From positions 7,564,001 through 7,628,000 of the forward strand of contig CM120641.1 of NCBI GenBank assembly GCA_051362555.1: a DNA stretch of 64,000 bases. The letters are read 5' to 3'. This document shows, in pieces, positions 12,269-60,526 of the stretch. Source of the DNA: Lingula anatina. Taxonomy: Eukaryota > Animalia > Brachiopoda. The position numbers and the translations under genes were made by a program. Positions within the stretch are counted from its first letter, which is position 1. Each line of letters begins with the position of its first letter. The notes beneath the pieces are model-generated. The model was not told where the DNA came from and ran no database searches. It worked only from the letters and a program-made list of their open reading frames with translations.

Positions 12269-12593
12269 ATGGCGAGGGATAAGTTCGAATTTCATGACCC
12301 CGGCACAATTGGTTCCTCTGAGAGTTTTCTGTTCAACGGATCGAGGAAATCGAAAGGATGCCACGTCAGTGTCGTTTCTGGGATTATTCTGGTGTTTCTG
12401 GCCATTGCCATCACGGTAGGGGTTGGGTTGATAGTGCATTTCGCTGGCGATAGAGTAGTGTGTAACTGTGGCACAGGAACTGACGGAAATGGAGGGGATA
12501 ATGACAGACAAATAGGAGTAACATCGAAAACGTCACCGCCCCCTATTACAGAAACAACGTTAGATCCAGATACGAAGCAATGTATCGCAAACT
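12269..12593 (+). CDS. ANPEP: APN-like gene exon 1: cytoplasmic tail, signal-anchor TM helix ([27 protein letters not shown]) and Cys/Thr-containing stalk
   Basis: GCCATGG Kozak ATG at 12269, basic residues before a hydrophobic helix, and a phase-1 GTAAG donor at 12594 that joins in frame to the acceptor at 20768 (…[14 protein letters not shown]…). Confidence 0.85.
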
Positions 12594-13194: not shown

Positions 13195-13236
<42 letters not shown>

Positions 13237-18098: not shown

Positions 18099-18161
<63 letters not shown>

Positions 18162-18853: not shown

Positions 18854-18889
<36 letters not shown>

Positions 18890-21800
18890 TATAATTTGCC
18901 AGTAATTTACGTGTAATTATTTGTGTCAAGATCCTTGAGCTAATGCTTCAAAAGGAAAGAATTAAATATTTTTTTCTGCACATCGTAGAAAGAAATCATG
19001 CACGTTTCCTCACTGAAGAAAATTGATTATCCTTTTTAGCATGTAGGACCTAACTACCGATCTCATTGAATAACCCTGAAAAGTCGGCTATAAAACTGTT
19101 TGACATGTCATGAATTTGAAACGTCCGTGTAAAAACTATTATCAGGTTATGTGAACCATATCGCGTCTTATTCTGAGATTTTTAAACTTGCTGCTTTGAA
19201 ATATCTTAAACCATTAAAAGATAAAAGAGAAAAAAATCTGCCTTGTGTCACTTCGAAATCTGAAATGTTCAGGTTTGGGTTCCTTTTACAATGCACATTT
19301 AAAAGCATGGATCTTGTTTACGTGTATATTAAAATAGTTAATCATTAAGATGAATGGACTAACTTTTTTATATAAAAATAAAGAGAACCAGTAGACCTTT
19401 ACAATATACTGTATGTAGACATATAAAGTAGTTTTCCTCTTCAAGGCCTACTATACTGTAGGCCTACCTTATAAGTTTTTCAGAGTAAACATGCCGCTTT
19501 TTATTGATTAATGCGTGTTGATATTAGATGTAGCCTATGTATCCTTATTAGACAAAAAATTTATATATATACATTTAAGTATAAGCTTCTGCTTAACTAT
19601 GCAGGGGCCCAAAAAAACGCTTTGTGTCATACATGTACGTGTATGTTTTATGGTACAGGGGCGGACCCAGAGATATTTTCTGACAGTCTTCCACATTATC
19701 TTTGTTGATCCATCTAAAATTTTTGACCGTCTTCCGACAGAAAAATTTAGGTACTCATCAATGTAAACTTAGAAATTTGACCGTCTTCCGGAAGACCCAG
19801 AAGACCGCCTCAATCCGCCCCTGTGGTATAAGGGTCTGTCTTGGAAAACCTATCTGAGTGGAGGCTTGAAACGTTTGCCTCAAAGACCACGTGCGTTTTA
19901 GGGTTCAACTGAAAGGGTAATAATGCTTGTCCTATATCCTAAATACATACTGGTACGTAGGCCTACATTCCCAGACCCTATCGTACTAACTTTGGATCGA
20001 AGTATCTCCGAGGGGATTCTCGCTTAATTGCAATTAACTTGGGCGGCTTAGATGTCTGTCACGCCTGCTGAGGCTGATAGGGGGTAATTAACTATCGTTT
20101 AGCAGCTTTAGTGGGCGTCCCAGGCGTCGAAGCCGCTTGGGCTGAAAGCAATTTAGCGAGGGACCCGGTGGAGATGGACCGCGATCCTGCTAGATCGATC
20201 TAGGGATGGGAACCCAGTCTTTAAGCTCCTCGGGCAATGAATGGTGCTTCACAATCGGAGGTTTAGGCGACTCTTTACCTGTATAAAATATAACTGGAAA
20301 ATATGCTCCCTTTTAAGCAGTAAAGATGAATTTTGGAAAAGATTTTGGCAAAGATTGTCTGTTTCTCCCTTGAAAAAGAAAATATGAAAAGAAAGCAGTT
20401 TAGAAAGGTGTACAAAAATTAATTTAAGCGGGTTTAGGTTACTAGTACATCCCATTATACCCCAAAGTGTTACTCCCTGCATCATTACTACCCCGCATCA
20501 CTATTCCTTTGTACTGTTACTTTCCTGCATTGTTGGGGTGTAATGGTCTGGGAATGAAAAGACCCCAATTTTAAGGGGAATTTAAAGCTGAAATCATTGT
20601 TTTGGCCTTCGACAAAACACATAGGAGTCAAAAAGCGAAATTAAGAATTGATGTTTTTTTTTAAGCCTAAGAATTATAGTAAGGGATTTTGAAATACATG
20701 TTTCAATCACAGTTTAATGTTCTTTTTTTCATTAAAATATCTATCACTTCATATGTTTTGATATTAAGGTGAAGCTGGTATCTTTCCAACATGCAGTCCT
20801 GGAACAACAATGGCCAACCCTGGTGTAACAACACCGAAGACTCCAGAAAAAGTAACAGATGTGCGGTTACCTACTGGTCTTATTCCTGTGCACTACAAGT
20901 TAAAACTGCAGCCAGATATGTATGGGGACAATCCAGAAAATTTCCTTTTCAGTGGAGCGGTAGAAATTTTCATCCATTGCCAAGTTAGCACAAACAATAT
21001 CACCCTTCATATTAATAAGCTGACCATCAAGAATTCATCCCTTGCTTTAGTGGAACAAAACGGTAACAGAGTTGTGGATTACAGTCACTACGAGGTGGAT
21101 GAAGCAAGGCAGTTCTTTATTTTACACCTTCGCTCAAGCCTTTCAGCAGGGATGAATTATACACTGAACATGGAGTTTGAGGGTCCTCTTAAACCAGATT
21201 TAAAAGGCCTATATCTCAGCCAATACAAACGTGGAAATAACTCTGTGTATGGCATATATATAAATTATAATAATTATTTTAAAGGAATGAATTTGAATGA
21301 CTGAATAGTGCTTTAACTAGTTATTAATGACTAGATTGCTGAATAAATTTATTTAAGATAACAAGATTTACAAGTAGCTTACTTAAAAACCAAAGATATT
21401 GACACATACAAGTCCCTTCACTATGACCCAAAGAACAAGGCTTAACAAAACAATTTGGCTCCCCTTTTGCATGATATATTTATTTGGGATAATTACAATC
21501 TCGAAAAAAAAAACAAATTATGACCATATGAATACTTTGTGGATGTTCATGTAGATAAAATGAAATATTTTATTGTTGCTATTATAATTTATTTTTCCTT
21601 CCTTTGTAGCTATATAGCTACAACCCAAATGCAGGCTACAGATGCAAGGAAAGCTTTCCCCTGCTTTGATGAACCTGCATTTAAAGCTGTCTTTGAAGTG
21701 ACTTTGGTCAGGAAAGGCCATATGAAATCTTTGTCTAATATGCCTCAAACAAAAACTGAGCTGAAGTAAGTTTTCCAACTATTTGCATTATATTTTTGTT

Positions 21801-24800
21801 TATTTCTTAACAAATGGACTTAATCAAATGCTCAATTAATATATCAGTTTTTTGCAATTTATTTATTACCCCTGTGATAATTTTTAATCGGAGATAAAAT
21901 ATACACCAAAGCAGCCACTGAAATTAATTTTGTGAAGCCCACACCCTTAGATTTTTTAAAAACATTTAACATGTGAAAAGTAGTATTCTTATAAAGAAGA
22001 ATTTTTGGAATCTGTTTGATCAATATTTTTAACAGTAATCGGTCTTTATCAGTGATTACCTGACTTTGGACATGGTTCATGTCTATCAGTATGTTAAACA
22101 TTACCCCATTAAATGTATAATTCATGAATTTTTATCTATTCCAGTGCTGATGGCTGGTATGAAGACCATTATGAGCCCACAGTTAAAATGTCCACATACC
22201 TACTTGCATTTGTCGTCTGTGATTTTGTATCTGTAGAAAAAAATACAACCAAAGGAACAGTGGTAAGGTTGTTGGATAGAAGTACAAATATACCTTCTCT
22301 GAAACAACACATTACAATGACAGTTGTGAATATTTTATTTCATTTAGAGAATTGGTACAATGTACATTCAGATGGCATTTATACATAGAGTACAGACTTT
22401 ATCTGCAATTTTTTAAATGTCCCCCTTCAAGTTAAATAATACACTTAAAGTGTCCAGAAATTTTATGTATTGTAAGGAGAATTTGGATGACATTTTGATA
22501 ATTACTTTATCATCTAACTCACATATTTTGTGAAAATAACTTGCACTGTCATCAAGTTTAATTTGGCAAAAATATCTTTAATTCAATAAAATTTACTTTA
22601 CATTTGCACCGGAGTATGCTGGATAAATTTACTTATTCATTTTAATTGGTCAAAGTTTGTTTTTCAACTAAGCACCTCCTTGGCATTTTACAGAAATACA
22701 GATTAACAAAATAAGAGTGACTGATAAACCTTATCTACAAATATCAAGTTCTAAGCATAAGGACACTAGATCCAGTTCAAGCACAGGAAACATTAATGCA
22801 GCAAACAAAACAAGAGAATGAATTTACTTATTCATTTTAATTGGTCAAAGTTTAATTGTTTTCCACTAAGCACCTCCTTGGCAATTTATAGAAATACAGA
22901 TTAACAAAATAAGAGTGACTGATAAACCTTATCTACAAATATCAAGTTCTAAGCATAAGGACTCTAGATCAAATTCCAGTTAAAGCACAGGTGAAACAAT
23001 GCAGCAAACAAAACAAGAGAATGAATTTATGGCCCTAATTCATGTACCATGATTATAACTTGCACACCTGTGTTTCACACATGGACAGCACTGCAGGATC
23101 TAGTTTAAGCAAGGAGTTACAACAGTTGTAACTCCTTGGTATAAGTGATCTGTATGATATTTTGTAATAACCCCTTTAAGCTTTTGCTTGGATTTATAAG
23201 ACTGATGAGATATTTTAATGATTATGTAAATTAATTTTGAGAGCTGACTTGGAAACAGAACTACCAGATTAGACAGGTAACAGGTATACACTGTGAGGCA
23301 TCACTGTCACTTTTATTTTATGCCTCACAAAGTAAATGAAGTAGTTTATTTGTCACACTGTTCCTACCTGTGCAAAGTAAATAGCACCTGTCAGTTGGTA
23401 AAATCAGCAAGTTACCCACACTTCCAATTTTGGGGGATGTTAATTGATGGAATACACCTGCAGCTTTCACAAGTAGCTAGTGTCAAGTGACCATGCAAAG
23501 TGATCAGAGTACATTTTACTGTAGTGCAATGGTTGAGGTGTAAGCATGACAGGTTAACATTGGCTGATGACTCAATAACTTTTTGACTTTCTTGTGATAC
23601 CAATAGTTAATATACACAATGTGCATGAGTGATAAAATTAAACAGTGTGTTAAATGCTCAACACTTAATGGAGTTGGTAATGATACTCAGTATACATTTT
23701 GACATTTGGTTTAAACCATAAATTATCAAAATATTGAAAAGAGGTGCACAGAAGATCCAAATACAATGACTAACTACCTTCTTTTGGATGCAAAAATGAA
23801 TGACTAATTTGATACATATACATTGTAGCTGTCTGAATTTTTTAAGTATGTTTATACACCATTAGTATACCATAAGTACCTTGTTTGTGCAATGCTGTTG
23901 GAAAAAAACTGAACAGCAAACTAGCTACAATATATTTTTAGGTATAGTAAAAGTATAAGTATACAGCTACTGTAATTGGCCAATTTACTAAGATTCTTTT
24001 ATTGTTTTTTACAGGTGAAAGTTTGGTCAAGACCAGAGGCAATTAATCAAACACAGTATGCCCTTGAGGCAGGAGTTGCCATTCTGGAGTATTTTGAAGC
24101 TTATTATGATGTACCTTATCCTTTGCCAAAGCAAGGTAAGTTAATTTAGGGGTATTTGTATTAACACTTTTTACAAAGATTGTTGATTACATAAATATTA
24201 AAAAATTCTATATTATTAGTTTGAAAAAAATTGTATCAATAGAGACCCAATACAAATAAGTCCTCATTAAAATGAATCCCTGATGGTGGATCGGCTCACA
24301 TTATAAAATTGTATATCAAAACATTACACACCGGTGATCTCTGACTATTCTCAGTTGAGTGATATGGTGTTTTAAAAGAGGTGTGCAGGAATTTTGTTAT
24401 TCAGGATGGATGGGTGTGTGAGGGGATATTTTTAATTTAGTATATAATTTTCATCAAAGTAATTATGCCATTTCTCACTACAGGTTCTAAAGTCAAAACA
24501 TAAACTGGTTATGATTTTGAAAACAGGCATTTAAAATTGTTTGCAATGGATGGATTCTGTTACTAAAAACTTGGGCATTACTGACATATGCAATAAACAA
24601 TTTAAAATCAGTTGTTGTTTTTTTTTCACACATATATATATAGATACGATAAAATAGACTTGGCAGACATAAAGTTTGATAAATCTGATAATGCAATATA
24701 CCATCATTTATTAAGTACCATTTATATGGCCAAACTTTTTTCGTCCTATCTAGACATGATAGCCATCCCAGACTTTGCTGCTGGAGCCATGGAAAATTGG

Positions 24801-27800
24801 GGTCTGATTACTTACAGGGAGACGGCTCTGCTTTATGACCCTGCTGTGTCCTCATTAGGCAACAAGCAGTCTGTGGCCATCATTGTGTCTCATGAGCTAG
24901 CACATCAGGTACTGTAATTTGATCCTTGTTGTTCAACATTTTTTATTCTCTGAAAAAGAATTTTGACAGCATAGAATTTGACTGAAAAGAAAATCTTGGA
25001 TAATGCTTGGCCGACATGCATTTTTGTGAAATGGTACTCTGAAAGTAAAAAAATAAATGCTTGAAATCTTTGGGGGGAAAAAATCACAGAAGTTACTATG
25101 TAAGAAAATGCAACTTAAACCCTGCCTTTTGTGCTTATTTGTGTTAATTGACACTCGAAGAATACGGAGGAAATGTCAAGAGATCTATTGTGTTACATAA
25201 AAAGTTTTTTAGTTCTGCATCTATTGAAACCGTTTGGTAAAAAGATATCAAATGTTTGTACATGAGATGTAGACTCTAAGTACACTCCATTAAACATGAA
25301 TGGAAAGTAAAAAAAATACCAAAAATACTTAGGAGAAAAACAGTGTCAGTATGAGGAAAAACTGTTCATTTTATGAATAAGTATTTGCTTATGTTTTCTA
25401 ACAATATTCTGATATACGAACAGAAAACTAAGCAAATTTTATTATTATTTTCCTTCTAGTGGTTTGGTAACCTTGTGTCTCCACTGTGGTGGGATGACCT
25501 GTGGCTTAATGAAGGATTTGCAAGCTATGTGGAATACCTGGGGGTGGATAACTTTGCAAAAGAATTTAAACTGGTATATAAAATATAATTTTGTAGTAAG
25601 AGGCCAGAATTATCCCATATCCATTTTTAATTAGATTTTTCACTGAATATTAATAAATTATGTATTATTTTCTTCTTTGATATTTAGTTAGTTACTTCAG
25701 GGAAACGGAAGTCACCTGCTTGTAAGCTGTCTAGTATCTTACAAAAATTACGTAAGGAAAGGATAAGATAGTATCAAGATACCAAGATTTCATTGATAGA
25801 TTGTAATTTATTATTGATGTAACATTTTTTCATTCCAGGGGTTGAGATTCCCATCAATAGACATTCAAGGAGTATTCAGACCTGATGGTTTGGCAAGTTC
25901 CCATCCCATCTATGTCCCAGTGGGCCATCCAGATGAGATCATTGAGATATTTGACTCTATCTCTTACAACAAGGTTGGTTATTACAAAACAGTCATTATA
26001 GATTCACAATTTTTACATTATTTACCTCCTCTTTAGATCTGTTAAATGCTGCACTCCACCTGCTTCATTTGCTAATATTATCTCTGTCCCTCGGTTGATG
26101 AACAACTGTCACACATACATCATAGAAAACCCCGCCTCTTTCTCCTTTTATGAATATCTGATGTAGAAAACAACAGTGTCCACCAGAAAGAAGCTAGTTA
26201 CATGTGGAAAAAAAATTTAAATAATTGTGACAATTGAAGGCAAAAGCTGTTTTCCTGTTTCCCCGTTGAAGGCAAATATTGTTCCCCTTTCAAAGTAAGT
26301 GATTTTAGAATCACAAACAATTCTAATAGATAGATTGAAAGTACTTGAAAAAATATAAAATTTTAAATTGTTATTATATCTTTTATTTACGTATGTATGT
26401 ATGTTGTTTGAATGCCATTTTAATGCTATTTTATAATTTAAAATTGGTTTCCAATTATTTGTAGCAGTCTAAAATTACTACCAGACATTGATTCAAAAAT
26501 TGACTTCTGGATCTTATGATGGCAGTAGTACAGACTGCATAAGACTATCAATCAACTTTATAGAATAGATATATGCAAGAAAGCCTCCAATGTTTTATAA
26601 ATCTATATGAATGCACTGTTTTAATCTGTATGAATGCATATTTTTTATCTAGGGAGCATCCATTATCCGCATGATGAGCTACTTTCTTACTGAGGATACA
26701 TTTAGGAAAGGACTTACGGTGAGCTCTACCAAAATTGTAACAATGTATGAAGTTGTATATATATATATATATAAAAGGAAATTCTAGAAACTTGAACCGA
26801 AAAAACTTAAATAAACATTTACATTTGTTTTTGCTTTTGAAAGGCCTCTATACTCTACATGTGGTATCTAGATTGAGATCTGTAATGTGAACTTTACACA
26901 AAAAGCTATACAAACTAGACTTTTTGCATGATTTTGCATGGTGACAGCTTTCATTTCAAAAGATGCTTTACAATTTTCATTTAGAGTTATCTTCGCAAGC
27001 ATGCGTATGATGTAGCCACCCATGATGATCTTTGGACTTCACTGTCTCAGGTAAAGAAGCAGTAGAGAAATATGGAGTAAAATGTTTGAAAATACCCCCA
27101 AAACATGAATAAGTTTTTGTCAGTTCAGAATGGAAGAAATTGTTTATGTGTGTGTACATATACTGAAGATTAACATTATTGTTTCCTCTCTATTTTTTTA
27201 TTAAGATTTTCAAGTGGGACAAACTATTTGAAATCTTCAATTAAAGTGCAACTCATTTCCTGTATAGGAGGCTAGAAGTCACCAAAAACTGAAGGCTTGT
27301 ATGAATAGCACATTCTTGCCACTTTTCCCGGAGTCGATCTTTTAATTTGCTGAATAACTTCTTTTTTTGACATTTTGAACACAGGAGGCTACAGGCATTG
27401 ATGTCAAACAGGTGATGGACACATGGACACTACAGATGGGCTACCCTGTGGTCAAGATAGACCTGGACAACACCACCCCGACTGGTGCTGTACGTGTGAC
27501 CCAGAAACATTTCCTGATTGACCCCTCTGTGGAGCCCAGTCCTAAGTACCCAAGTCCATATAAGTGAGCTATAATCCAACTATTATGTCCAAACAATTAA
27601 TGTTAATTTTACATGTATGAGGTATATTAATTATTACATATGATAGTTTTTAATTCTTTAAAATCTTATGCTTGACTTTGTGTTTAGTATGATAGTGTGG
27701 ATCTGCAGTCACATGACAGGAGAAGAGGTCCTTTTCTGTCAATGTAAATTATTTTCAGCTGTCTACAAAGGGGCAGTCAAATACCTTCATGGTCTATAAC

Positions 27801-43409: not shown

Positions 43410-43454
<45 letters not shown>

Positions 43455-46400: not shown

Positions 46401-47708
46401 TATGTAATATTGTATCAAAATTTGAGGAAACCCCTATTTTGGGCTCTGCTCCCATGATGACCATTTAAGGAAAATCATGTCACTCACTGTTCTCAAACTT
46501 ACAGGAAAGAAACATGGGACTAAAATATAGCTTCAGTAGGCAATGCAGTCTGTTTGGTAAATTTTTCTGGCAATTAAACAGTTTTTTGTGAAAATTTAAT
46601 TTTTCACTTATTGTCATTTTCAAGGTGTGACTTAGAACCTCCACGGGCTTGAAGACCTTTGCTGGTCACATTTTCTGAATATCCATGATACTAATATTTT
46701 ATTATTAAAAATTGATGGTCATTATGCTGTTAAACATTATGTAATGTTGCATCAAAATAGAAGAAAACACAATTTTTGGTGTTGCTGCCATGATGACCAT
46801 TATGGGAAAACCATGTTACTTATGACTGTCAAACTTTCAAAAAAGAAACACAGGACTAAAATGCAGCCTGAGTTGGAAAAGCAGTCTAATTGGCTTCTTT
46901 TTCTGGAAGTTATACATTTTAGTGAAATAATTATTATCTTTTTAGCATATTCATTGTGGGACTCAGAACTCCCATGGACATGAAGCCGAATGGTAATCAA
47001 ATTTTCTACATGTCCTTGCTATTTATAGTCAATAATCAAAAATTGGTGATAATTATTCTATAATTTATTATGTAATGTTACATCAAAATTGACAAAAATC
47101 TTTTTGCACTGCTACTGCAAATATTATGAAAAGAAAACTGTGCTACTTATTATTATTTTTAACATACAAGTATGATTTTTAAGATCGGCATGCAGTTCAA
47201 ATTAGAAAGCCAGGTCAATTGGGTTATCATTTATTATTGAATTTTATGCAATTTTGTGTGAAATTTCATTTTTCTCATTCTGGCACTTTCTAAGTATAAA
47301 CTTGAACTCTGATGGGCCTGAAGCCTTATGCTTTTACTTTCGTTGGTGTTATCTATTGTGCAAAATTAAAATTTGATGTTGACTGTGCAGTTAAACATAA
47401 TGTATTATTGCATCAGAATTGGTAGTCCCCTATTTTGTGCATTATTGTTTTGTGCTTTTCTTAAGTTGTGACTTATGGGCCTGAAATACCTTTGAGAGGG
47501 TCAGTCTGTAAATTTCCCTTGGGTATCACTTAGCTAATTTCAGTGTTATAAAGTAATTTGCCTAATTAATGGGCCATTAAATGAGATTACATAAAGCACA
47601 CTTGTTGATATTTCCCTGTAAACTCCCATAGGTTAAGCTCTCTGCTAGATTAATAATAAGGAAGCAGTGATAATTATGCAGGTGAATTTTGTTTAATATT
47701 GCAAATAA

Positions 47709-47789
<81 letters not shown>

Positions 47790-50700
47790 AACTCAAAGAT
47801 TAAAAGTTTGAATAGCAGCTTCATTGGAATTATATTTACCTCTGCCAAGGAGGTTATATTTTCACCCCTGTTTGTCATCAACATAACTCAAAAAGTTATG
47901 GACCGATTTTGCTGAAATTTTCAGGAACTGTCAGAAGTGGGCCAAAGAGGACAATAATCAATAATAATCAACAATTGCTACCTTGGCAGAGGTCTGCACT
48001 CTCGGAGCGCTTTGCTAGTTTTGTTATGTTTTCCTGTATAATTTTTTCTCAAACACTTGCATTTGTGACTTTTAACTCTCATCCACCTGAGGCTCTGACA
48101 TTTCTGTATTTCCACATAAGCAGTTGTATTGTTTTTTATGTCTTTGAACATTATGTTACTTATGTAATATTATTTTATGCACTGTCATCATTTTTCAAAT
48201 ATTGAGACTTTCATCATGTGAATTTGAACTCATGGTCCTGAAACTGTAATCTTATTGAAAGGGTTGATTGAGACCATCTTCTGGGTCTTCCGGAAGACAG
48301 TCAGGTTATTAAGTTTATATTGCCTGGTATCTATTTTTTCTTCTGTTGGAAGACCATCAAAATGGAGGATGGATCAAAATAGATACTTTGGAATACTGTC
48401 AGAAAATATCTCTGGGTCCACTCATGTTATTGACCATTTTACCTGTTGTGCATGATTAAAATTCAGTGTTGACTGACAGTGCTATTATAAGCATTATTTA
48501 TTATTGCATCAAAATTGACAAAATGACCCATTTTGCATCTTTATTTTCTGTTTTTTGTCTGTACATTTGACAGCTTTGCTGCCTTGTTTAACATTTTAAA
48601 ATAATTTGTTTCACTGGCAATTTATTAAGGATTTTCCAGTGAAAAACAGACCCACTGAGACATGCATTTGAATTTTTTGTATTTTGCCTTTAATGTTTGT
48701 ATTCAAAAAGGATACCTTGGTAATGATTTCAAAACAAAATGAAACAAATTTAAGAAGAACTTTTAACTTGTTTTTCCTGTCGCCTGTAGGTCAGAGTTTG
48801 GGCACGACGAGAAGCCGAGGACCAGACAGCTTATGCTCTGAATGCTGGAGTTAATATTCTGGAACACTTTGAAAACTACTATAACATAAGTTTCCCTCTT
48901 CCAAAACAAGGTGAGGTTTCATAAAATTACACCTGTCATAATTGTTTATCAGTAAATGACTACTTTATTCCATAAGGTGTAAAACTTGGTATCCTGGACA
49001 TTTATTTATAATTATAAAAAACATCCAAGTAAAACAATCCAAGACTTCGCAACTGCATGGAGTCTTGGAGAACTGAAATCTGATTACTAACACGGCAACT
49101 GCTCTGCTATATGATCCCAAGGTGTCATCTGCTGGTAGTAAACATTGAACATTTTGAATTGTTTATTTAGACATGATAGCCATCCCAGACTTTCCTGCTG
49201 GAGCCATGGAAAACTGGGGTCTGATTACTTACAGGGAGACAGCTCTTCTCTATGATCCTAAAGTGTCGTCTGCTAGTAATAAACAGAGAGTGGCAGTGGT
49301 TGTGTCACATGAACTGGCCCATCAGGTGGGTAGATTAAAGATGAAATTTTAAACTGAAAATGTGCAAAATACCTCAAATACCTATGCATTAATTGAAAGA
49401 AAAATGATGGTTGGTCACAATTTTCCATTACAATATTAATTCATTAAAAAAAATCCTTCAGTATTGAGGTTACGTGTAAATTCAACTCATCCTATGATGT
49501 GTGATATGCCTTCCAGTGGTTTGGTAACCTTGTGTCTCCACTGTGGTGGGATGACCTTTGGCTTAATGAAGGATTTGCCAGCTATGTGGAATACCTGGGG
49601 GTGGACTTCATTGAATCAACATGGAAAATGGTAATGATATATGGCTGGAATACATGTGATGTGAAACTATTGAATATTTAAATGTCTGAAAAAGAGGACC
49701 TTGAAGGTTACCATAAGGTAAAAATTGTGTATTTAGTGATTTAGAAACCAAGTTTTTTGAACATATTTTCATAACATGCCCAAATGGGGAAAATGTTCTG
49801 GTGATCCAGAGAGCATGTAAAAGGAAATATGCCTCTGTCTTTAAGAGACATTTTGAAATAAAAAAATGATAGTTGCATATAACATAATGACTTTTTTTAA
49901 TAGATGGAACAGTTTTTAGTCGAAGATCTTGAGGATGTGTTCAAATTGGATGGCCTGGCCAACTCTCACCCCATCTATGTTCCTGTGGGACATCCTGATG
50001 AGATCAATGAGATATTTGACAGGATCTCTTATGCTAAGGTATTGTTCCTTTGAATATTATATTGAAAATTAATTGTTAGTTAAGAGGTGTATAATGAAGG
50101 CTGACAAATGTTTCTTTCATCCTTGAAAACATTTCTCTAAGTATTTAGAAATATGATTGTCTCTTACAAAATAGCTTATTATCACTTCTTATATTTCAGG
50201 GAGCATCAATTATACGCATGATGAACAACTTTTTGACTGAGGATGTGTTTAGAAGAGGCCTTACAGTATGTGTTTTCTTAATAAAATGTTTTTTAAGTTA
50301 GGAATATACATATATAATTAAGTAGCCTTGTGAGCATAAATATTTAAATAACATATAACTGTAAGTTTGGGTGTTTCAATTTTTTTTTAATACTGGAATT
50401 TTGAAATTGTGAACTACCTCATAAATATAGCATTTATTGCACACATGTAGTTTGCAAAATTGAATTTTTCTTACCCAACAAGATATGATAGATAATGCAA
50501 TTACTTTTTCTCTTAAACAGCGTTACCTTAACAGGCATGCCTATGATGTTGCCACACATGATGATTTATGGGCTGCCCTCAGTGAGGTAAATTAATATCT
50601 AGCAGGCTGGCAGCAACTGAAGCTTCAGATATGTGCATTTATGTCCTGTTTCTGTAAATTATTTCCTTTATTTATTTTGTAAGCTGTAAGAAGCATATTT

Positions 50701-53700
50701 TTTTGTATTTATGGCTCAGTGCAAGACATGTTTTGATCTTCCCTCTAATGTTGACATCTTTTGACAAAAAAAAAGTAAAATGCAGTATTTGTGCTTCATA
50801 GAATTCAAAGAACCATAATTATAAGAGTGTTTTTATTGATAGAGCAAATTATATTTTAATTTGAAAAAATTTAATTTATGCTTGTATTTTCTCAGCAAAC
50901 CAGAGAAGATGGACACCCGGTGGATGTGAAGACAATAATGGACACTTGGACACTCCAGATGGGTTACCCAGTGGTCAAGATAAACAGAACCTACAGTGAA
51001 CAACCATCAACTGTATCACAGTCTCATTTTCTCATAGATCCAACTGTAGAACCAAACCCTAAATATCCTTCACCTTTCAAGTAAGTTGGGATTTATGCAA
51101 AAGATCTTTATTTCAAGTCAGTGATATGAAAGTTACTTTTAAACATTTTAAATTTCAGTTCTTTTCAAATAGTTTTGGTGACTCTGATGAAGGTAGGTTC
51201 AAGATCCATGTTAAAACTATTTTCTCAATACTATAATATTTTTTTCAGTTACAAATGGGAGATACCTTTAACTCTCACCACAAGTAATTCTCCAATGTGG
51301 AATGGCACCATAAGATGGATGAAAAAAAATGACAGTAAAACTACATTTCTAACAAAAACTATTTTTTACCTGTTACACAGTTTGAAGGATAAGTAAGATA
51401 TTAAGTCCAGTATTAATTAAAGCTTGAATATTAAACATCCTCTTGTCCTTTTTACTTAGAATTTGCCACCATTTTCACTATAGTACACTATCAATTGTCA
51501 TTCACACAGCAGGAGATTTTCTGGAACATTAGAAATTGTCAATCTTTTCACTGTGCTTCATTTTCATATTTATTGGCGTTAACAAAGGTGCTTAGAACCA
51601 TGTTCATTCTTGTGCTTTTATGTTTTAACAGTTAGTCTTAATACAACTGACTTGAATAATGTTGGAGATGATGGTTGGGTGATTGGCAATCTTCAGCAGT
51701 ATGGCTACTACAGGGTCAACTATGACAGGAAGAATTGGGACAACATCCTCAATCAACTGAACACTCATCACAGGGTAAGTGATATTCATGGCATGGAAGG
51801 AATAAGCACTCTGATTCATTACAAATGACAGGTCTAGAGCATTGCCTTCTACAACCATACATGGTGTCCTTTGTAAATCTCTTAAAAGAAATGGACATAT
51901 TTAATGTGCTCCTTTTTACAGCAAACTTAAAAGACCCCATGGATTTTTCATATCATTTTTAAAGTACATCTGGAACATTTTTTTTCAGATGATACATGTG
52001 AAAAACAGAGCTCAAATTATAGATGATGCCTTCAACATAGCAAAGTAAGAATGATGAATAGAGCTTTTAAATGATATGTTCAGTTTTAAGGGAGAAAAAT
52101 TAATCTGACCAAAATGTTGTTTTTAATTTTTTTTGCATCTTCTTTGAAAGTATGAGGTATTAGTTGGTGTTTTTTTTCAAAATATGAGGTCCTCCTTATA
52201 TTCAATTTTGCTATTCAGTTGTAATTAAGTTATTTGTTTTTTTTAAATACATAATACGTATGTAATACCTAAAATATGAAGATAAAATGCTAAAAATTTA
52301 AAATGTGTTCTTTTAGTTCTGGCATTGATCCAGCTGTAGACATAGAGCTAGCTATGCAGACGACCAAGTATTTGTCCAAAGAAACAGAGTACATCCCGTG
52401 GGAGGCAGCACTCTTGAATGTTGGTTACTTGGACATTATGATGAGCAAAACCCAACACTATGGAAACTACCAGGTATATCTTTCAAGTTCTCTTCTGCAA
52501 GGTGCAGGATTGCAGTGAATTGTTGCTTTTGAGATGCCAACAGGTGTTATCATTGTTGCCTTAAATAAGCAATTATTTGGAAAACCAGCCAATATAAAAT
52601 GGTAGGAACAGTCAATACAAAATGAGAAATTGGTGTGAGGTTTACCCTCAGAAATCATGAACTCACATGCAACCAAATGGAGATATTTATTTATTCACTT
52701 AATATTTGAACAGGTTTGGTTGTATTCCTCATTTTTAGTGCCATGAAATTATCCAGATATATCTAGTATTTCAAAATCATTGATGTACAAATGGATTTAG
52801 CTTAGCATGTATATATCTTATTTCCATAGTGAGTTTGAACAGTGAAAGTACCATTTTTGGTGAGACATTGCCTTAATTTATCTATTAATCTTAATATCAA
52901 TCTTGTGATTTCCAGAAGTACATGTTGCACCAGATATTACCACTGTACAACAGGGTGGGATGGGAGGATACTGGAGGGCCTGGAGAGCACCTTGAACAGT
53001 AAGGATTTATAATAAACTACATATGTCTGTCTTGTTTGTCATCTTTAAAATAAGCTGTTGCCACACTGTTAAAAATATCTTATGAATGTTGGGTTTCATA
53101 TTTTGTTTTTGTTCTTTCTTTTCAACTTTTCCTTTACTTGACATATCTCTTCAGTTACAATAGGATCAATGCTTTGGGTAGAGCCTGTGCCTATGGATAC
53201 CAACCTTGCCTGGATAAAGCCACAGAGATGTTCAACAGTTGGATGAATTCGGCAAACCCTGATGAGGATAACCCGTGAGTAGGGTCTGACTGTTTTAAGT
53301 AGTTTTTGTGAAACTATTGAATTCAGTCTATATCTTACCACAAAACAGTGTGTTGTGGTCAAATGATCAGTTTTAACTGATTGCAATCAACTTCTGTACA
53401 AAAGGGGTTAAAACTTCATATCTTATTATATGTGATTATTTATTTTCATTTATATATGTACTAGTTACAACACGAGTTGGCCATACACGAGCGTAATTAT
53501 ATTAAGGTGCAGCCGAGATATAGTTTGCTCTTGTATGTCGCAGACAGTGGACGTAGAGTAGTTGTAACTGTCTTATACCATAGCTGGCACTTCGAACAAT
53601 AGGACAAAGGCACCGAAGGATATGAAAATACAGGCAAGCCTGTATGCGAAATATACAAGTACAATTAACCTATTGTTTGAAGTGCCAGTTGTGGTGCAAT

Positions 53701-55520
53701 AATTAATAAAAGATTAGGGGATAGTTTGGTCAAGCAATGAATGTGCCTTTTCTTACAGTATTCCACCAAATTTGAAGTCTTTGGTCTATTGCAATGCCAT
53801 TAAGAAAGGTACTTCCCAGATGTGGGACTGGACATATGAAAGATACAAGAAGGCCAATGTGGCATCAGAACAAGTCAAGCTGCTGTATGGACTGTCATGT
53901 AGTTCTCAAACTTGGATTCTTAGCAGGTGAATGTCTCTGTTGGTATAAATTGCTAATTTGTGCTTAAGATGTACTACATGTTGTTTGTTATATTGGAAGT
54001 GTGTAAATAGCAGTGGACCAATTTGTTTTTAGGATTTCAAAACTTTAATTATTAATTATAGTTGTTTGGATGAGAATAGATAAGATGATATATGTTTGTC
54101 ACATTCATCAGATATCTGGAGTATGCCATAACTTCAAGTGAGATTCGTAAACAAGATGGCACCTCAGTGATTGTGTATGTTGCAAGGAACCATATTGGAA
54201 GAGGTCTTGCCTGGGACTTCATTAGGTCTAAATGGAACTTTTTAATGAATGAGTAAGTAAATCTCTGATATGGGTGTAATATTGGAATAAACTGCATGTT
54301 TGTTGCATTGGAAGCTTATAAGTCACCTTCAGATACATGTAGATATTTGTTTATTATCTGAAAAATGTAGTTTTTATTTTTTTTCATTTAATTTGAAGAT
54401 TGGTGCTCACCTGTTTTGTAATTTAATTTAGGTGATTACAATTATTTGTGCTATGTTTGATATGGTGATGTTTGGTGTAGTTTTTGTTTGTTTTATTTTA
54501 TTTGCAAAAGTTATCACTATATATATGTATGTTCAAAATATATACATATATGTAAATCATTATTATTTGATACAAACTGGATAATTTTTTCTCACCGTAC
54601 TACCTAGTAAATAAGCTAGTGTTCAACCTGAAGGCTTTCATTAGACTGATGTGAGTTGATGCCATGGAAGATAGGATTGAAAAGCATTCAATATCATTTT
54701 CGATCTACTCAAGTACATGACATTTACAACAGGGTCCTGGCTGTTGTACCACCTTACGGTCAGTGAGAAGCAACATCTACTTATGTCAACCTGATGAAGA
54801 CATTTGACCAGGTTGGCTGCAATTAAGTTTTGTACTGTGAGGAAAAATTGTGTCAGATAATTATGATTTATATTTAAATGGCAATCTAGTGAACTTTTTT
54901 GCTCACATACATATATAATCTAAGTGTTGTTATAAAAAGTTAATAACTTCTTCATTACAGTTATGGTGGTGGAAGTTTCTCTTTCTCCAGTATCATCAGA
55001 GGAGTTACCACTCACTTCAACACACAGTTTGAACTAGATAAAGTAAGCAGTTTGCCTTTGGGATTACTTCTTAAATATTTATATGCCAACATAAACAGAT
55101 GTAGTAAAGGAAATAAGAAGAAATTTGAATTGTTAAACAAATATTAAGCCACTGAAGTTTTAGAAAAATCATTGTAGTTTTATTCGTACCATATGTAGAT
55201 GGTTGATTATTGGGATCACAGTTGTGATATATAGTAGAGTGATTAAAATAAATAAATTTCATTATTGAAAAATTTGATTATACTTGATTTTTAGTTGAAT
55301 GAATTCATATCCAGCCGTGACAATCTAGGATCAGGTCAGCGTGCCTTTGAGCAAGCTGTGGAGAAGACACAGGCAAATATCAAGTGGATGCAAGCCAATG
55401 AAAAGAAACTGGGAGAATGGCTGGCAGCAAATGTAGAGTAAGTTGGCTCAGAAATCATCATTTTGGATGGTATATTTGGATGATATATTGGATGATATAT
55501 TTGGGGATATATTGGATGAC

Positions 55521-55568
<48 letters not shown>

Positions 55569-58500
55569 TATTATGTATTTGCTTCATGTTTTTTTTTATT
55601 GAGTGATGTTCAAGACATGCTCCACCTATTATCTTATTATTGTTTGACAAGAAGTAATTACTTTTGCTATGTAATTAATAGTAATGCTTTTATATTGAAT
55701 ATTCATGTCAAGTTATGTACAATAACAGCTGTTTGAAAAACTATAATGGTAATGTTCAGAGTGAACATTCATTTACAGTGAATAGTGCTTCAGAATTTCA
55801 AAAACACCTGACTGTGACATTTCATTTTTTTAGCCCCACAGATACAATAACCAAGCCCTCTGATGTCCGCCTACCCACCACCATGTTACCTAACTACTAC
55901 AAGTTGTGGCTACGACCTGACATCTATGGCAGTGACCCTGAGACCTTCACCTTTGATGGTGTGGTGGAGATAACCATGCTTTGTAATGAAACCACTAAAG
56001 TCATCAAAGTTCACACTAATAAACTAACCATCAATAGTGTGGAGTTGATGGAAACGGCTAACAATGCTAGTGTGGGTGGAATTACAAGAAGTGAAGACAA
56101 ATCAAGACAGTTTTTGGTGATTAATGCACCAGAAAATTTTGTGGTTGGGAAAAACTACACTCTAAAGATAAACTTCACTGGGCCTTTGAAAGATGACTTA
56201 GCAGGACTGTACAGGAGTCAATATTTCAGCTCCACCAGAAATGAGACTATGTAAGTATGCAATATCCCAAATTATATTTCTTAAATGAGTAAATTTATTG
56301 TTTATCATTTATAAATTAAATGCCAAAATTATAATGAAAAAGATAGATTGTACATAACTGAGTCCAAAATTGTAGAATTTGCAAAAATTTTGTTATGTGC
56401 ACTTTCGTTTCTTAAATACCAGTAAATATAAACTTTGTCACTTCAAAGTTTACGACTTCACTTCAAAGTTTACGTGATTTAACCCAGTCACAGATGGTAA
56501 TTTAAGCCTGCATTAATTCCCTTAATAAAAAATAATTTATCTTATAGCAATAAAAATTTATGTGGTTTTAAGGAGATTGTGTAACCATTTTTAGATATTA
56601 TTTTCTGTGTTCTCTTCAGCCACATTGCCACCACCCAGATGCAGCCCACAGATGCCAGAAAAGCTTTCCCCTGCTTTGATGAACCTGCATTTAAAGCTGT
56701 CTTTGAAGTGACATTGTGGAGAAAAGAACCCATGATTTCCCTGTCCAATATGCCTATCAGAAGTACTACAACACAGTAAGGATTTGGTTTGTAAAAGATT
56801 TACCAATTGTTTTAAATGTGGAGACATTCCTCTTTTGATTTCTTCTAACAGAAGGAAGTGCACAAATCAGAAGAGATGAAGTAACAAGTTCTTGTAAAAA
56901 ATTTGTAAGTTTGAAAGGAGTTTTTTAAGAAGCAGTTTTTTTAACACATGATATTACATTCCATTAATGAAAAAGACAAACACCAATATGCCTGAAGTAA
57001 AGCAGTGACTTGGTATACGTAGTTAGTGTATATAAACCGAGATGCTACAACATGTTGAGTATATTTTACAGAGATGACTGGAAGCTGGACCACTACTTCC
57101 CCACTGTGAAGATGCCTACCTACCTGCTGGCCTTCATTATCTGTGATTTTGTTTATGTTGAGAGAAACACAACAAGGAACACAGCTGTAATTCAATATAT
57201 ATTTTATGCAGTCATACTTTTACCTTGGTACACTTAATTGTTTCATTAGAGTTTGAATAGTAATAAGCAGTTTGTCACCAGAGATCACACAGCTATTGCT
57301 TACTTGCTTAAAATTTTCTAAGAGGTTTTTGGACAGATTAGAGCAGTTTTTTAACATTTTAAAATAATTTGTTTCACTGGCAATTTATTAAGGATTTTCC
57401 AGTGAAAAACAGACCCACTGAGACATGCATTTGAATTTTTTGTTTTTTGCCTTTAATGTTTGTATTCAAAAAGGATACCTTGGTAATGATTTCAAAACAA
57501 AATGAAACAAATTTAAGAAGAACTTTTAACTTGTTTTTCCTGTCGCCTGTAGGTCAGAGTTTGGGCACGACGAGAAGCCGAGGACCAGACAGCTTATGCT
57601 CTGAATGCTGGAGTTAATATTCTGGAACACTTTGAAAACTACTATAACATAAGTTTCCCTCTTCCAAAACAAGGTGAGGTTTCATAAAATTACACCTGTC
57701 ATAATTGTTTATCAGTAAATGACTACTTTATTCCATAAGGTGTAAAACTTGGTATCCTGGACATTTATTTATAATTATAAAAAACATCCAAGTAAAACAA
57801 TCCAAGACTTCGCAACTGCATGGAGTCCTGGAGAACTGAAATCTGATTACTAACACGGCAACTGCTCTGCTATATGATCCCAAGGTGTCATCTGCTGGTA
57901 GTAAACATTGAACATTTTGAATTGTTTATTTAGACATGATAGCCATCCCAGACTTTGCTGCTGGAGCCATGGAAAACTGGGGTCTGATTACTTACAGGGA
58001 GACAGCTCTTCTCTATGATCCTAAAGTGTCGTCTGCTAGTAATAAACAGAGAGTGGCAGTGGTTGTGTCACATGAACTGGCCCATCAGGTGGGTAGATTA
58101 CAGATGAAATTTTAAACTGAAAATGTGCAAAATACCTCAAATACCTATGCATTAATTGAAAGAAAAATGATGGTTGGTCACAATTTTCCATTACAATATT
58201 AATTCATTAAAAAAAATCCTTCAGTATTGAGGTTACGTGTAAATTCAACTCATCCTATGATGTGTGATATGCCTTCCAGTGGTTTGGTAACCTTGTGTCT
58301 CCACTGTGGTGGGATGACCTTTGGCTTAATGAAGGATTTGCCAGCTATGTGGAATACCTGGGGGTGGACTTCATTGAATCTTCATGGAAAATGGTAATGA
58401 TATTTGAAATATATGAGATGTGAAGCTATTGGATATTCAAATTTCTGAAAAAGAGTACCTTGAAGGTTACCATAAGGAAAAAATTGTGTATTTAGTGATT

Positions 58501-60526
58501 TAGAAACCAAGTTTTTTAACATTTTTTCATAACATGCCCAAATGGGGAAAATGTTCTGGTGATCCAGAGAGCATGTAAAAAGAAATATGCCTCTGTCTTT
58601 AAGAAACATTTTGAAATAAAAAATGATAGTTGCATATAACATAATGACTTTTTTAAATAGATGGAACAGTTTTTAGTCGAAGATCTTGAGGATGTGTTCA
58701 AATTGGATGGCCTGGCCAACTCTCACCCCATCTATGTTCCTGTGGGACATCCTGATGAGATCAATGAGATATTTGACAGGATCTCTTATGCTAAGGTATT
58801 GTTCCTTTGAATGTTATATTGAAAATCAATTGTTAGTTAAGAGGTGTATAATGAAGGCTGACAAATGTTTCTTTCATCCTTGAAAACATTTCTCTAAGTA
58901 TTTAGAAATATGATTGTCTCTTACAAAATAGCTTATTATCACTTCTTATATTTCAGGGAGCATCAATTATACGCATGATGAACAACTTTTTGACTGAGGA
59001 TGTGTTTAGAAGAGGCCTTACAGTATGTGTTTTCTTAATAAAATGTTTTTAAGTTAGGAATATACATATATAATTAAGTAGCCTTGTGAGCATAATTATT
59101 TAAATAACATTTAACTGTAAGTTTGGGTATTTAAATTCTTTTTTTAATACTGGAACTTTGAAATTGTGAACTACCTCATAAATATAGCATTTATTGCACA
59201 CATGTAGTTTGCAAAATTGAATTTTTCTTACCCAACAAGATTCGATAAATAATGCAATTATTTTTTCTCTTAAACAGCGTTACCTTAACAGGCATGCCTA
59301 TGATGTTGCCACACGTGATGATTTATGGGCTGCCCTCAGTGAGGTAAATTACTATCTAGCAGGCTGGCAGCAACTGAAGCTAGAGTTATGGGCATTTATG
59401 TCCTGTTTCTGTAAATTATTTCCTTTATTTATTTTGTAAGGTGTAAGAAGCATATTTATTTGTATTTATGGCTCAGTGCAAGACATGTTTTGATCTTCCC
59501 TATGATGTTGACATCTTTTGACAAAAAATAAGTAAAATGCAGTATCTGTGCTTCATAGAATTCAAAGAACCACAATTATAAGAGTGTAATTATTGATAGA
59601 GCAAATTATATTTTAATTTGAAAAAATTTAATTTATGCTTGTATTTTCTCAGCAAACCCGAGAAGATGGACACCCGGTGGATGTGAAGACAATAATGGAC
59701 ACTTGGACACTCCAGATGGGTTACCCAGTGGTCAAGATAAACAGAACCTACAGTGAACAACCATCAACTGTATCACAGTCTCATTTTCTCATAGATCCAA
59801 CTGTAGAACCAAATCCTAAATATCCTTCACCTTTTAAGTAAGTTAGAATTTATGCAGAAGATCTTTATTTCAAGTTGAAAAATACATTTAAACATAGTGA
59901 TTTAAATTTCAGGTCTTATTTCATAGTTTTGGGGGCTTTGTTAAAGGTCATTTCAAGATCCATGTTAAAACTTTATTCTCAATATTGATAATTTTTTTCA
60001 GTTACAAATGGGAGATACCTTTAACTCTCACCACAAGTAATTCTCCAATGTGGAATGGCACCATAAGATGGATGAATAAAACTAATAGTAAGGAGTGCAT
60101 TTATAACAAAAACTTATTTTTACCTGTTACACATTTTGCAGAATAATAAGGATTTAAAGTCTAATTTTATGTATAGCTTAGTGGTGGATATTAAAATCCT
60201 CCTTTTTTCTTAGAATTTACCACCATTTTCATTAGAGTACACTATCAATTGTCATTTATACAGCAGGGGGTTTCTTGTACATTTTTGATTGCAATCCTTC
60301 CACTTTGTTTCATTTTCATATTCATTGGCATTAACAAAGGTGCTTAGAACCATGTTCATGCTTGTGCTTTTATGTTTTAACAGTTAGTCTTAATACAACT
60401 GACTTGAATAATGTTGGAGATGATGGTTGGGTGATTGGCAATCTTCAGCAGTATGGCTACTACAGAGTCAACTATGACAGGAAGAATTGGGACAACGTCC
60501 TCAATCAACTGAACACTAATCACAGG
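12269..60526 (+). CDS. ANPEP: Multi-module aminopeptidase N-like (M1 zinc metallopeptidase) type II membrane protein with at least 4 tandem M1 modules; at least 3,421 aa in this window, 3' incomplete
   Basis: A single TM exon followed by four repeats of the same 20-exon M1 series (the fourth truncated after 12 exons). Each has [38 protein letters not shown]...WLNEGFA and the catalytic Tyr in ISY.KGAS. Inter-module introns are GT-AG, phase 2 at both ends. The QMQ and YGGGSFSF signatures point to APN rather than APA or ERAP. Confidence 0.85.
14152..14465. mobile_element. Foldback MITE with roughly 135-bp imperfect inverted arms, TA-flanked
   Basis: ggggagaattcacattgagaagagccgag...cgcgtcgtccct pairs with agggacgacgcg...ctcggctcttctcgatgtgaatgctccc; TA on both sides. 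Confidence 0.85.
14645..14919. mobile_element. hAT-like MITE (CAGTGGCGGA-type ends, poly-C and poly-G tracts)
   Basis: cattggtggatcc ... aaatccgccactg; flanks tttgt / gttgt. Confidence 0.65.
14960..15350 (+). mobile_element. 5'-truncated LINE remnant (ORF2 C-terminus)
   Basis: [15 protein letters not shown]...REGRLCICG...EEH...C is the typical C-terminal zinc-knuckle-like motif of non-LTR ORF2 proteins. Confidence 0.75.
16762..17033. repeat. Tandem repeat, about 3 x 92 bp
   Basis: The unit ccttttaggtca.tgtggcatt...gataattcatcaata starts at 16762, 16854 and 16946. Confidence 0.9.
18085..18166. repeat. (TTTA)n microsatellite
   Basis: Direct observation. Confidence 0.9.
19656..19823. mobile_element. 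hAT-like MITE with apparent 5-bp TSD (TGGTA)
   Basis: tggta|CAGGGGCGGA...TCCGCCCCTG|tggta. Confidence 0.75.
19966..20556. mobile_element. Possible degraded TIR element
   Basis: 12-bp inverted ends cattcccagacc / ggtctgggaatg around a GC-richer interior; no clear TSD. Confidence 0.35.
20769..33350 (+). CDS. ANPEP: M1 module 1; exons 20769-21246, 21610-21765, 22145-22262, 24015-24135, 24754-24908, 25460-25573, 25839-25973, 26653-26718, 26985-27050, 27385-27563, 27985-28073, 28794-28939, 29062-29117, 29360-29516, 29760-29833, 30106-30225, 30675-30842, 31323-31463, [32399-32477 or 32565-32646], 33208-33350
   Basis: All exons are GT-AG and phase-compatible. GAMEN/HELAH exon at 24754, third Zn ligand (NEGFA) exon at 25460, ERAP1_C-type exons downstream. 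Confidence 0.93.
22627..23028. repeat. Tandem duplication, 2 x about 195-200 bp, intronic
   Basis: aatttacttattcattttaattggtcaaag...gcagcaaacaaaacaagagaatg occurs from 22627 and again from 22821. Confidence 0.9.
32067..32238. mobile_element. Degraded MITE, same family as 32865-33017
   Basis: ttcagaacagcagactaacagatcc ... ggatctgttagtcactgttctgaa inverted ends; shares the internal aatatgg(g)tgacccact segment with the 32865 element. Confidence 0.6.
32399..32477 (+). CDS. ANPEP: Module 1 alternative exon A: (E)[26 protein letters not shown]
   Basis: 79 nt, phase 2 to phase 0, preceded by two perfect TACTAAC branch sites (32362, 32372), GTAAG donor. Confidence 0.85.
32565..32646 (+). CDS. ANPEP: Module 1 alternative exon B: (E)[27 protein letters not shown]
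   Basis: 82 nt, phase 2 to phase 0, TAG acceptor, GTAAG donor, paralogous to exon A. Confidence 0.85.
32865..33017. mobile_element. MITE with about 27-bp TIRs
   Basis: cagtggctgcattcagaacagtggact ... agtccactgttctgaatgcggccagtg. Confidence 0.75.
33711..43122 (+). CDS. ANPEP: M1 module 2 (903 codons); exons 33711-34127, 34421-34576, 34931-35048, 35495-35615, 35913-36067, 36454-36567, 36849-36983, 37193-37258, 37557-37622, 38099-38283, 38519-38613, 38980-39122, 39313-39368, 39637-39793, 40314-40387, 41319-41438, 41694-41861, 42241-42381, 42631-42709, 42980-43122
   Basis: Same exon series as module 1. It begins at a strong acceptor (long pyrimidine tract, CAG 33708-33710) with no start codon, signal peptide or TM helix of its own. 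Catalytic motifs intact. Confidence 0.93.
35820..35880 (+). pseudogene. Decayed duplicate of the GAMEN exon upstream of the functional exon (module 2)
   Basis: tctgactttatttctggagtcttgtcaaactggggtctgattgatatcgtgaagacagct aligns to ccagactttgctgctggagccatggaaaactggggtctgatcacttacagggagacggct. Confidence 0.6.
37815..38069. mobile_element. hAT-like MITE, 14-bp perfect TIR, apparent 5-bp TSD (CTATA)
   Basis: ctata|CAGGGCCGTAGCCT...AGGCTACGGCCCTG|ctata. Confidence 0.85.
40535..41149. mobile_element. Young non-autonomous DNA transposon (615 bp), 77-bp perfect TIRs, 8-bp TSD CCCTTAGT (hAT- or P-type)
   Basis: TIRs at 40535-40611 and 41073-41149; TSD at 40527-40534 and 41150-41157. Confidence 0.93.
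43410..43451. repeat. (CA)n microsatellite in the module 2-3 linker intron
   Basis: Direct observation. Confidence 0.95.
43504..55437 (+). CDS. ANPEP: M1 module 3 (903 codons); exons 43504-43920, 44290-44445, 44742-44856, 48790-48910, 49171-49325, 49517-49630, 49904-50038, 50200-50265, 50521-50586, 50896-51080, 51249-51334, 51632-51774, 51989-52044, 52317-52473, 52916-52998, 53155-53274, 53759-53926, 54112-54252, 54961-55042, 55295-55437
   Basis: Same exon series with intact motifs ([25 protein letters not shown]); loop exon reads [12 protein letters not shown]. Confidence 0.93.
45100..45890. repeat. Satellite-like array of 161-162-bp monomers (4 well conserved plus 1 diverged) inside the HINE
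   Basis: The unit accgtaaacac.ataagtg.aaaac starts at 45100, 45261, 45423 and 45585. Confidence 0.92.
47716..47787. repeat. (TA)n microsatellite
   Basis: Direct observation. Confidence 0.95.
47835..48020 (+). mobile_element. Short HINE of a second family nested in the large HINE
   Basis: 13-bp subterminal IR acctctgccaagg / ccttggcagaggt, 3' hairpin gcactc-tcg-gagcgc, ends ctagtt. Confidence 0.8.
49037..49144 (+). pseudogene. Decayed duplicate of the GAMEN exon (module 3)
   Basis: atccaagacttcgcaactgcatggagtcttggagaactgaaatctgattactaacacggcaactgctctgctatatgatcccaaggtgtcatctgctggtagtaaaca aligns with the adjacent exon 49171-49325, with indels and a TGA in place of TGG. Confidence 0.75.
53464..53700. 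mobile_element. Degraded non-autonomous element with two internal inverted-repeat pairs
   Basis: agttacaac / gttgtaact and accatagctggcacttcgaacaatagg / cctattgtttgaagtgccagttgtggt. Confidence 0.5.
55525..55564. repeat. (TA)n microsatellite preceded by short ttggatgatata repeats, module 3-4 linker intron
   Basis: Direct observation. Confidence 0.9.
55834..60526 (+). CDS. ANPEP: M1 module 4, first 12 exons: 55834-56250, 56620-56775, 57072-57186, 57553-57673, 57934-58088, 58280-58393, 58661-58795, 58957-59022, 59278-59343, 59653-59837, 60002-60087, 60384-60526; presumably continues beyond the window
   Basis: Near-identical to module 3 in exons and most introns, with intact motifs. The following intron contains a TIR element and a LINE that reach the window edge. 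Confidence 0.9.
57800..57907 (+). pseudogene. Decayed duplicate of the GAMEN exon (module 4)
   Basis: Copy of 49037-49144. Confidence 0.75.

Follow-up and report, generated by a model that had tools for sequence, protein, structure and literature searches.

The aminopeptidase N (APN) gene on the forward strand of a 64,000-nucleotide stretch of the brachiopod Lingula anatina genome (assembly GCA_051362555.1, contig CM120641.1, positions 7,564,001 to 7,628,000; this whole stretch is referred to below as the window) appears to combine a single anchor exon with successive complete APN modules spliced into one reading frame, and probably specifies a single ectoenzyme, uncleaved and beads-on-a-string in form, in which one anchor carries multiple active sites and the modules are tuned to some extent relative to one another. 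APN is the textbook case of a one-unit, dimerising ectoenzyme. In the case of the Lingula gene, RNA reads across junctions, together with a matching four-module RefSeq model, support the covalent multi-module open reading frame that an original prediction had proposed on inspection of the DNA. The gene is already in RefSeq as LOC106172388 (XP_013408525.1/XP_013408526.1, 'uncharacterized protein', 3,733/3,732 aa; UniRef entries A0A1S3JDN6 and A0A1S3JEE1), where it is unnamed and without functional description; the wider multi-module pattern is apparently unreported.

The exon model of this gene was built by hand from six-frame motif scans and from comparison of the window with itself. It comprises 73 exons (10,266 nt, 3,422 aa, 0 stops) with the frame still open, and all 72 of its introns are GT-AG. 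(The stop-free chain stands as first described; its length, originally summed to 10,263 nt and 3,421 aa, is one codon greater.) The window holds one lead exon, three complete 20-exon APN modules and 12 of the 20 exons of a fourth, all on the + strand. The lead exon (12269..12593) contributes the ATG, a short cytoplasmic tail, a single transmembrane (TM) segment, a Thr/Pro/Cys stalk and a phase-1 donor, and its first 108 aa are the same as in XP_013408525/6. The TM segment (residues 38-56, at about 12380-12436) is the sole hydrophobic peak across 3,422 aa, which agrees with the claim that there is only one ATG/TM exon. The predicted arrangement is that of a type II anchor with a short cytoplasmic tail and a stalk, the joint between lead exon and module 1 being taken from the model and from RefSeq.

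Module 1 (20769..33350) has 20 exons and 921 aa, with GAMEN, HELAH-x18-E and SYNKG intact; modules 2 (33711..43122) and 3 (43504..55437) each have 20 exons and 903 aa, likewise with intact motifs. Module 4 (55834..60526) is present as exons 1-12 (587 aa) and does not correspond to the module that ends the RefSeq model. The starts of modules 2, 3 and 4 are those originally assigned. They follow linker introns of 360 bp (33351..33710, +, module 1 to module 2), 381 bp (43123..43503, +, module 2 to module 3) and 396 bp (55438..55833, +, module 3 to module 4), which are phase 2 at both ends and join the modules in frame with the join peptides as first written. The sequence of the third linker intron is unrelated to that of the second. 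Read through unspliced, each linker donor runs into an in-frame TAA. The possibility that this TAA is a relic stop was considered and dropped, since an in-frame stop follows the donor immediately in 25 of the gene's 30 phase-2 introns. Exon 19 of module 1 is duplicated: an alternative copy of 79 nt (32399..32477, +) replaces the 82 nt of 32565-32646, RefSeq isoform X2 taking the former and isoform X1 the latter.

Splicing of the linker joints is documented by six of nine raw-read RNA-seq runs bearing the Lingula anatina label (150-nt reads; 6-30% of each run read), which were mapped to 26500-46400 (runs X1, X4, X7 and X9) and to 30000-35700 (runs X7, X8, X9 and X2). The joint of module 1 to module 2, 33350>33711, is crossed by 2, 15, 4 and 0 reads in runs X7, X8, X9 and X2, respectively, 21 reads from three of the four runs; three adjacent ordinary joints have 10, 10 and 14 reads in total. 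(What is actually aligned is 33347>33711 plus three letters, which constitute a synonymous allele.) Depth in the bin 33438-33628 of linker intron 1 is 0 in all four runs. Because its joint has at least as many reads as its neighbours and there is no depth in mid-intron, linker intron 1 acts as a constitutive intron. The joint 43122>43504 is crossed by 6, 0, 19 and 14 reads in runs X1, X4, X7 and X9 (39 reads, three of four runs), which are not divisible between the module 2-to-3 and module 3-to-4 joints because the flanking exon ends are identical: the final 44 nt in the last exons of modules 2 and 3, and the opening 162 nt in the first exons of modules 3 and 4. A splice from a module end to a module-3-type start is present in mRNA. 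Thus, of the junctions that the original prediction had singled out for checking, the first is found in reads and the second is found without being separable from the third. These spliced joints between modules also mean that the rule of one catalytic ectodomain per chain, which characterises vertebrate-type APN, does not hold for this gene.

Several internal joints of module 1 are also supported by reads, among them 31463>32565, which uses the second exon-19 copy and occurs in runs X7 and X8; depth on 32399-32477 is seen only in run X2. Loose read ends in 30000-35700 show last exons that are mostly of module-3 type (agreement 0.95-0.96) and that continue into a first exon of module-3/4 type (46, 35 and 44 reads; agreement 0.92-0.95); they lend indirect support to linker intron 3. 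In exon 1 of module 2 (33872-33999) many fixed sites in the reads disagree with the assembly, six of them within 33939-33954; either the RNA came from animals that have diverged considerably from the assembled one, or a further paralogous module is involved.

The RefSeq protein has one TM segment and four stretches each of Peptidase_M1_N, Peptidase_M1 and ERAP1_C, as was to be looked for in proteins with at least three Peptidase_M1 plus ERAP1_C repeats; further invertebrate chains of this kind were also found (see below). RefSeq model and window share the joins of lead exon to module 1, module 1 to module 2 and module 2 to module 3. Module 2 is 100% identical in the two, and module 1 differs at 5 aa (isoform X1).

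The catalytic motifs are retained throughout, as originally stated. Aligned to pig APN, GAMEN, HELAH-x18-E and SYxKG are found in all four modules of the window. Peptidase_M1_N matches the first exon of each of the four and Peptidase_M1 matches exon 5 of module 4; the domain order is Peptidase_M1_N, Peptidase_M1, ERAP1_C, with module 4 of the window lacking most of ERAP1_C. The chain probably carries at least four zinc sites, all of them predicted to be active. The S1-pocket motif, TTQMQ[A/P]TDARK, is almost constant across the window modules. Differences are found at the residue aligned to the Arg that precedes the zinc motif of pig APN (Ser in module 1, Trp in module 2, Arg in modules 3 and 4) and in the helix following the zinc motif, where module 1 differs from the other window modules. 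The terminal module of the RefSeq protein, which lies beyond the window, has QLA instead of QMQ in the pocket motif and may differ in specificity, since in other M1 enzymes this position binds the substrate amine. (The channel-lining and pocket roles of these aligned positions are presumed ones.) Between modules 1 and 2, nonsynonymous divergence (dN) is 0.27 and synonymous divergence (dS) 1.87; between modules 2 and 3 the corresponding values are 0.16 and 0.97. For the old modules overall, dN of 0.16-0.29 and dS of 0.83-1.87 point to purifying selection.

A structure of module-1 domain IV, linker and module 2 (1,200 residues of the RefSeq protein) was predicted by AlphaFold from a 19-row alignment, with a mean predicted local distance difference test score (pLDDT) of 86.4 and a predicted template modelling score (pTM) of 0.70; the ten linker residues, 306-315, score under 50. 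The predicted structure is of two normally folded APN bodies on a flexible, disordered tether of ~10 residues, and nothing in it indicates that their orientation is fixed. The window linkers are Pro/Thr-rich and without dibasic pairs; linker sequence is not conserved between lineages, and linker length goes down to about 7 residues in ants.

The best solved relative of the Lingula modules is mammalian APN (ANPEP/CD13; family M1; PDB 5lds, 4fyq; E 5e-247), with which the gene has in common type II topology, GAMEN, HExxH-x18-E, the catalytic Tyr motif and the QMQ pocket. The difference is in number: mammalian APN has one ~930-aa ectodomain per anchor, whereas four or more are predicted for the Lingula chain. 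Similar in design are the M1 chains of other invertebrates, which consist of complete tandem modules about 870-910 aa apart on short linkers, with a zinc motif in every module listed. Annotated counts are four in Mytilus, Saccostrea and Littorina, five in Mizuhopecten, five to six in Ptychodera and two in Owenia and heterodont clams; among insects they are four in Athalia, Cephus, Chironomus and Polypedilum, and three in bees, wasps and ants. M1 proteins with four to six modules are thus annotated in many invertebrates, and the rarity that the original prediction implied is not supported. The insect chains start with a signal peptide and close with a hydrophobic C-terminal tail, in contrast to the type II anchor of Lingula. 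Several catalytic units per anchor, generated by internal duplication, are also found in sucrase-isomaltase, maltase-glucoamylase, lactase-phlorizin hydrolase, somatic ACE, carboxypeptidase D and the polyserases; these belong to other families and have a fixed number of units, mostly two to three or four. The likeness would be an analogy of design, not homology.

A homologue search limited to proteins of 3,372-5,000 aa yields 20 matches among 1,081 candidates, the highest-ranking being LOC106172388 itself. Eleven of these have 4-5 zinc motifs spaced 846-999 aa apart and no internal hydrophobic segment (Lingula, Ptychodera, Mizuhopecten, Saccostrea, Mytilus, Littorina, Athalia, Cephus, Medioppia, Chironomus and Polypedilum), spanning, besides Lingula, bivalves, a snail, an acorn worm, sawflies, midges and a mite. 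The other nine contain internal hydrophobic segments and are probably merged models of neighbouring genes. Two-module proteins with one N-terminal TM segment occur in clams, snails, Owenia and an isopod, and three-module proteins in bees, wasps and ants. Orthologous four-module models are present in four Mytilus and two Saccostrea species, and the first modules of the mussel, oyster and scallop chains are conserved orthologues of one another. A three-module ant protein is encoded on a Logan contig of 8,413 nt, and a two-module protein on another; apart from these two contigs and the Lingula reads, the multi-module proteins are predicted models. (The best 150 representatives clustered at 50% identity show at most 3 matched stretches, so that four-module proteins were missed at that level; a homologue search with exon 1 of module 2 retrieved nothing among 207 candidates.) Two GAMEN-to-HExxH exon stretches are also seen in a 691-aa sea urchin protein and in 121-aa metagenome fragments, where they are probably annotation or assembly repeats.

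In module trees (a quick tree and FastTree) the modules of Lingula group together as a separate clade, and the same holds for the modules of Ptychodera, Owenia, the Littorina four-module protein, Chironomus, Medioppia and Hymenoptera. The approximately unbiased (AU) test on a 20-row subset rejects one clade of all 11 multi-module rows against the other 9 (p 8e-66) and, on the same rows, a clade of Lingula and molluscs (8 against 12; p 3e-7). The groups were named after inspection of earlier trees, and an old fusion could be hidden by gene conversion, so that independent origins are likely, not proven; for the type II chains tested, a single origin is rejected, with the reservation that conversion could mimic that outcome.

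A search of full-text literature, with supplements and most subscription papers outside its scope, returned no description of a multi-module APN; the available part of PMC10368266 has nothing on repeated APN modules, and the word 'peptidase' is absent from the available main text of the Lingula genome paper. We regard it as an evenly balanced proposition that poly-aminopeptidases are undescribed, repeatedly evolved giant ectoenzymes (of brachiopods, molluscs, an annelid, acorn worms, mites and insects; 2-6 intact APN units per anchor, on linkers of about 7-20 residues) and that the Lingula array is still growing, with five or more modules here and four in RefSeq between haplotypes.

The Lingula product would, on the reading preferred here, be one type II ectoenzyme of >400 kDa with its predicted zinc sites on short flexible linkers. 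It could have arisen by tandem duplication of a 20-exon ectodomain block, with a phase-2 donor placed at the position that would terminate a single APN, and with a new acceptor within the first ectodomain exon; unequal crossing-over or conversion may still be adding and homogenising modules (as in modules 3 and 4). Its role would be to raise the number of exopeptidase sites that each anchor, and each unit of membrane area, provides on an absorptive surface; the substrate channel would be modestly tuned from one module to the next, short of a strict assembly line. A digestive function is suggested by likeness to brush-border hydrolases.

Several alternatives have to be weighed against this. The locus might instead be a cluster in which every transcript joins the common lead exon to a single module and ends at the donor TAA. 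The TAA itself, a phase-1-compatible AG lying 8 nt into exon 1 of modules 3 and 4, and a single AATAAA in linker intron 2 would fit such transcripts, but the linker joints are spliced in mRNA, the TAA is ordinary by the count given above, linker intron 1 has no depth, linker introns 1 and 3 contain neither AATAAA nor ATTAAA, and module 2 has no phase-1 acceptor near its start. No convincing in-frame ATG-led signal exon, of the kind that separate 5' exons would require, was found in the linker introns. As the main form, one-module transcripts are already contradicted, and the cluster as a whole is very improbable. A second alternative accepts the chain as a polyprotein precursor that is clipped at exposed linkers, leaving modules 2 to n soluble or retained through contacts of domain IV, much as happens to pro-sucrase-isomaltase at the brush border. 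The predicted disorder of the linker agrees with clipping, and mammalian APN dimerises non-covalently through domain IV, as described in the available part of PMC5385526, which could retain cleaved modules. Against it stand the absence of any furin-type R-x-[KR]-R site in 3,422 aa, the lack of dibasic pairs in the window linkers and the want of linker conservation across lineages. Cleavage at the Pro/Thr linkers, which the original prediction had offered as one possibility, is distinctly unlikely. A specificity-divided assembly line, in which each module would remove different N-terminal residues and pass the peptide on, is compatible with the preferred reading. It draws on the Ser/Trp/Arg difference before the zinc motif, the divergent helix of module 1, the QLA of the RefSeq terminal module, the retention of a module-1 orthologue in mussel, oyster and scallop chains, and the alternative exon 19 of module 1. 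The nearly identical S1 motifs of the four window modules, the 98.5% identity of modules 3 and 4, the 95.8% identity of the two Owenia modules and the absence of any channelling geometry in the AlphaFold prediction speak against it; high identity between modules points to dosage as the first benefit. As regards the 'diversified assembly line' of the original prediction, modules 3 and 4 are not diversified from each other and the differences are limited to some channel-lining positions; divided specificity is unlikely.

The remaining alternative, which touches module count only, holds that modules 1-3 are real, that module 4 is an assembly duplication or a dead copy broken by a long interspersed nuclear element (LINE), and that the true protein is the four-module RefSeq form. 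Modules 3 and 4 differ at 16 of 1,773 coding nt, and this coding divergence, taken alone, is close to the heterozygosity of Lingula, given as 1.6% in the available part of PMC4595640; RefSeq has one module-3-type module followed by a different terminal one, whose identity to the others is about 60-65% and which the window lacks; and module 4 ends at a repeat. On the other hand, the introns upstream of modules 3 and 4 are unrelated, and divergence of the introns within them runs from 0-0.5% (introns 1, 2, 4 and 5) to 14% (introns 10 and 11), the latter too much for ordinary alleles. This intron pattern is more easily reconciled with a real, recent duplicate whose 5' part has been homogenised than with two alleles. 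Loose read ends suggest a module-3-type module followed by another, and the third module of RefSeq, which equals module 3 of the window in exons 1-3 and departs from it in exons 4-20 by 33 aa differences and a 3-aa indel, looks like the window's exons 1-3 joined to another module-3-type copy. An artefactual or dead module 4 is, on this evidence, rather unlikely, though less so than the other alternatives. Module 4 is probably an extra recent copy of module 3, so that module number may vary; this haplotype would have five or more modules if module 4 is completed and the RefSeq terminal module follows. Intron 3 of module 3 contains a 3.6-kb repeat-rich insertion (about 45021-48584) that is absent from module 4; it includes ~160-bp tandem repeats and repeat sequence that is highly covered in RNA, and spans the point at which the RefSeq third module shifts from matching to differing from module 3 of the window.

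Certain observations weigh against the single uncleaved chain favoured here. Module 4 is incomplete within the window and missing from the RefSeq model. No linker joint appears in two of the six runs, X4 (which has no depth on module exons) and X2 (which has very little); the reads are short, so that no molecule covers more than one junction, and read support for the joints between modules covers 33350>33711 and 43122>43504. The phase-1 AG dinucleotides at 43512 and 55842, in the first exons of modules 3 and 4, could accept the lead exon directly. A pTM of 0.70, obtained with 19 alignment rows, gives little information on how modules pack against one another, and a linker predicted to be disordered could plausibly also be cut by proteases.

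A covalent chain of four or more units would alter how the dimer-dependent opening and closing cycle of APN could work. The system also provides a direct test of what drives duplication in surface hydrolases, selection for enzyme dosage or divided specificity. The junction reads imply that at least one 'uncharacterized' invertebrate M1 model of 3,500-5,000 aa is not a merged-gene error, and the number and size of the APN genes recorded for molluscs and insects may have to be reconsidered.

Module 4 breaks off, just inside its intron 12, into a repeat and a LINE-type reverse-transcriptase element. The repeat is of 1.2 kb and has two copies that are 94% identical, one upstream of the gene (4699-5874) and one inside intron 12 of module 4 (60586-61752, - strand). 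The reverse-transcriptase reading frame (61966-63999, - strand) is open for 677 aa from the window end and matches RVT_1 with E 6.6e-27. Intron 15 of module 2 contains a 615-bp element resembling a miniature inverted-repeat transposable element (40535-41149), with terminal inverted repeats of 89 nt that are 94% complementary. It has strong, mostly one-strand coverage in run X4, in which APN exons are silent; this coverage probably comes from reads of other copies of the element.

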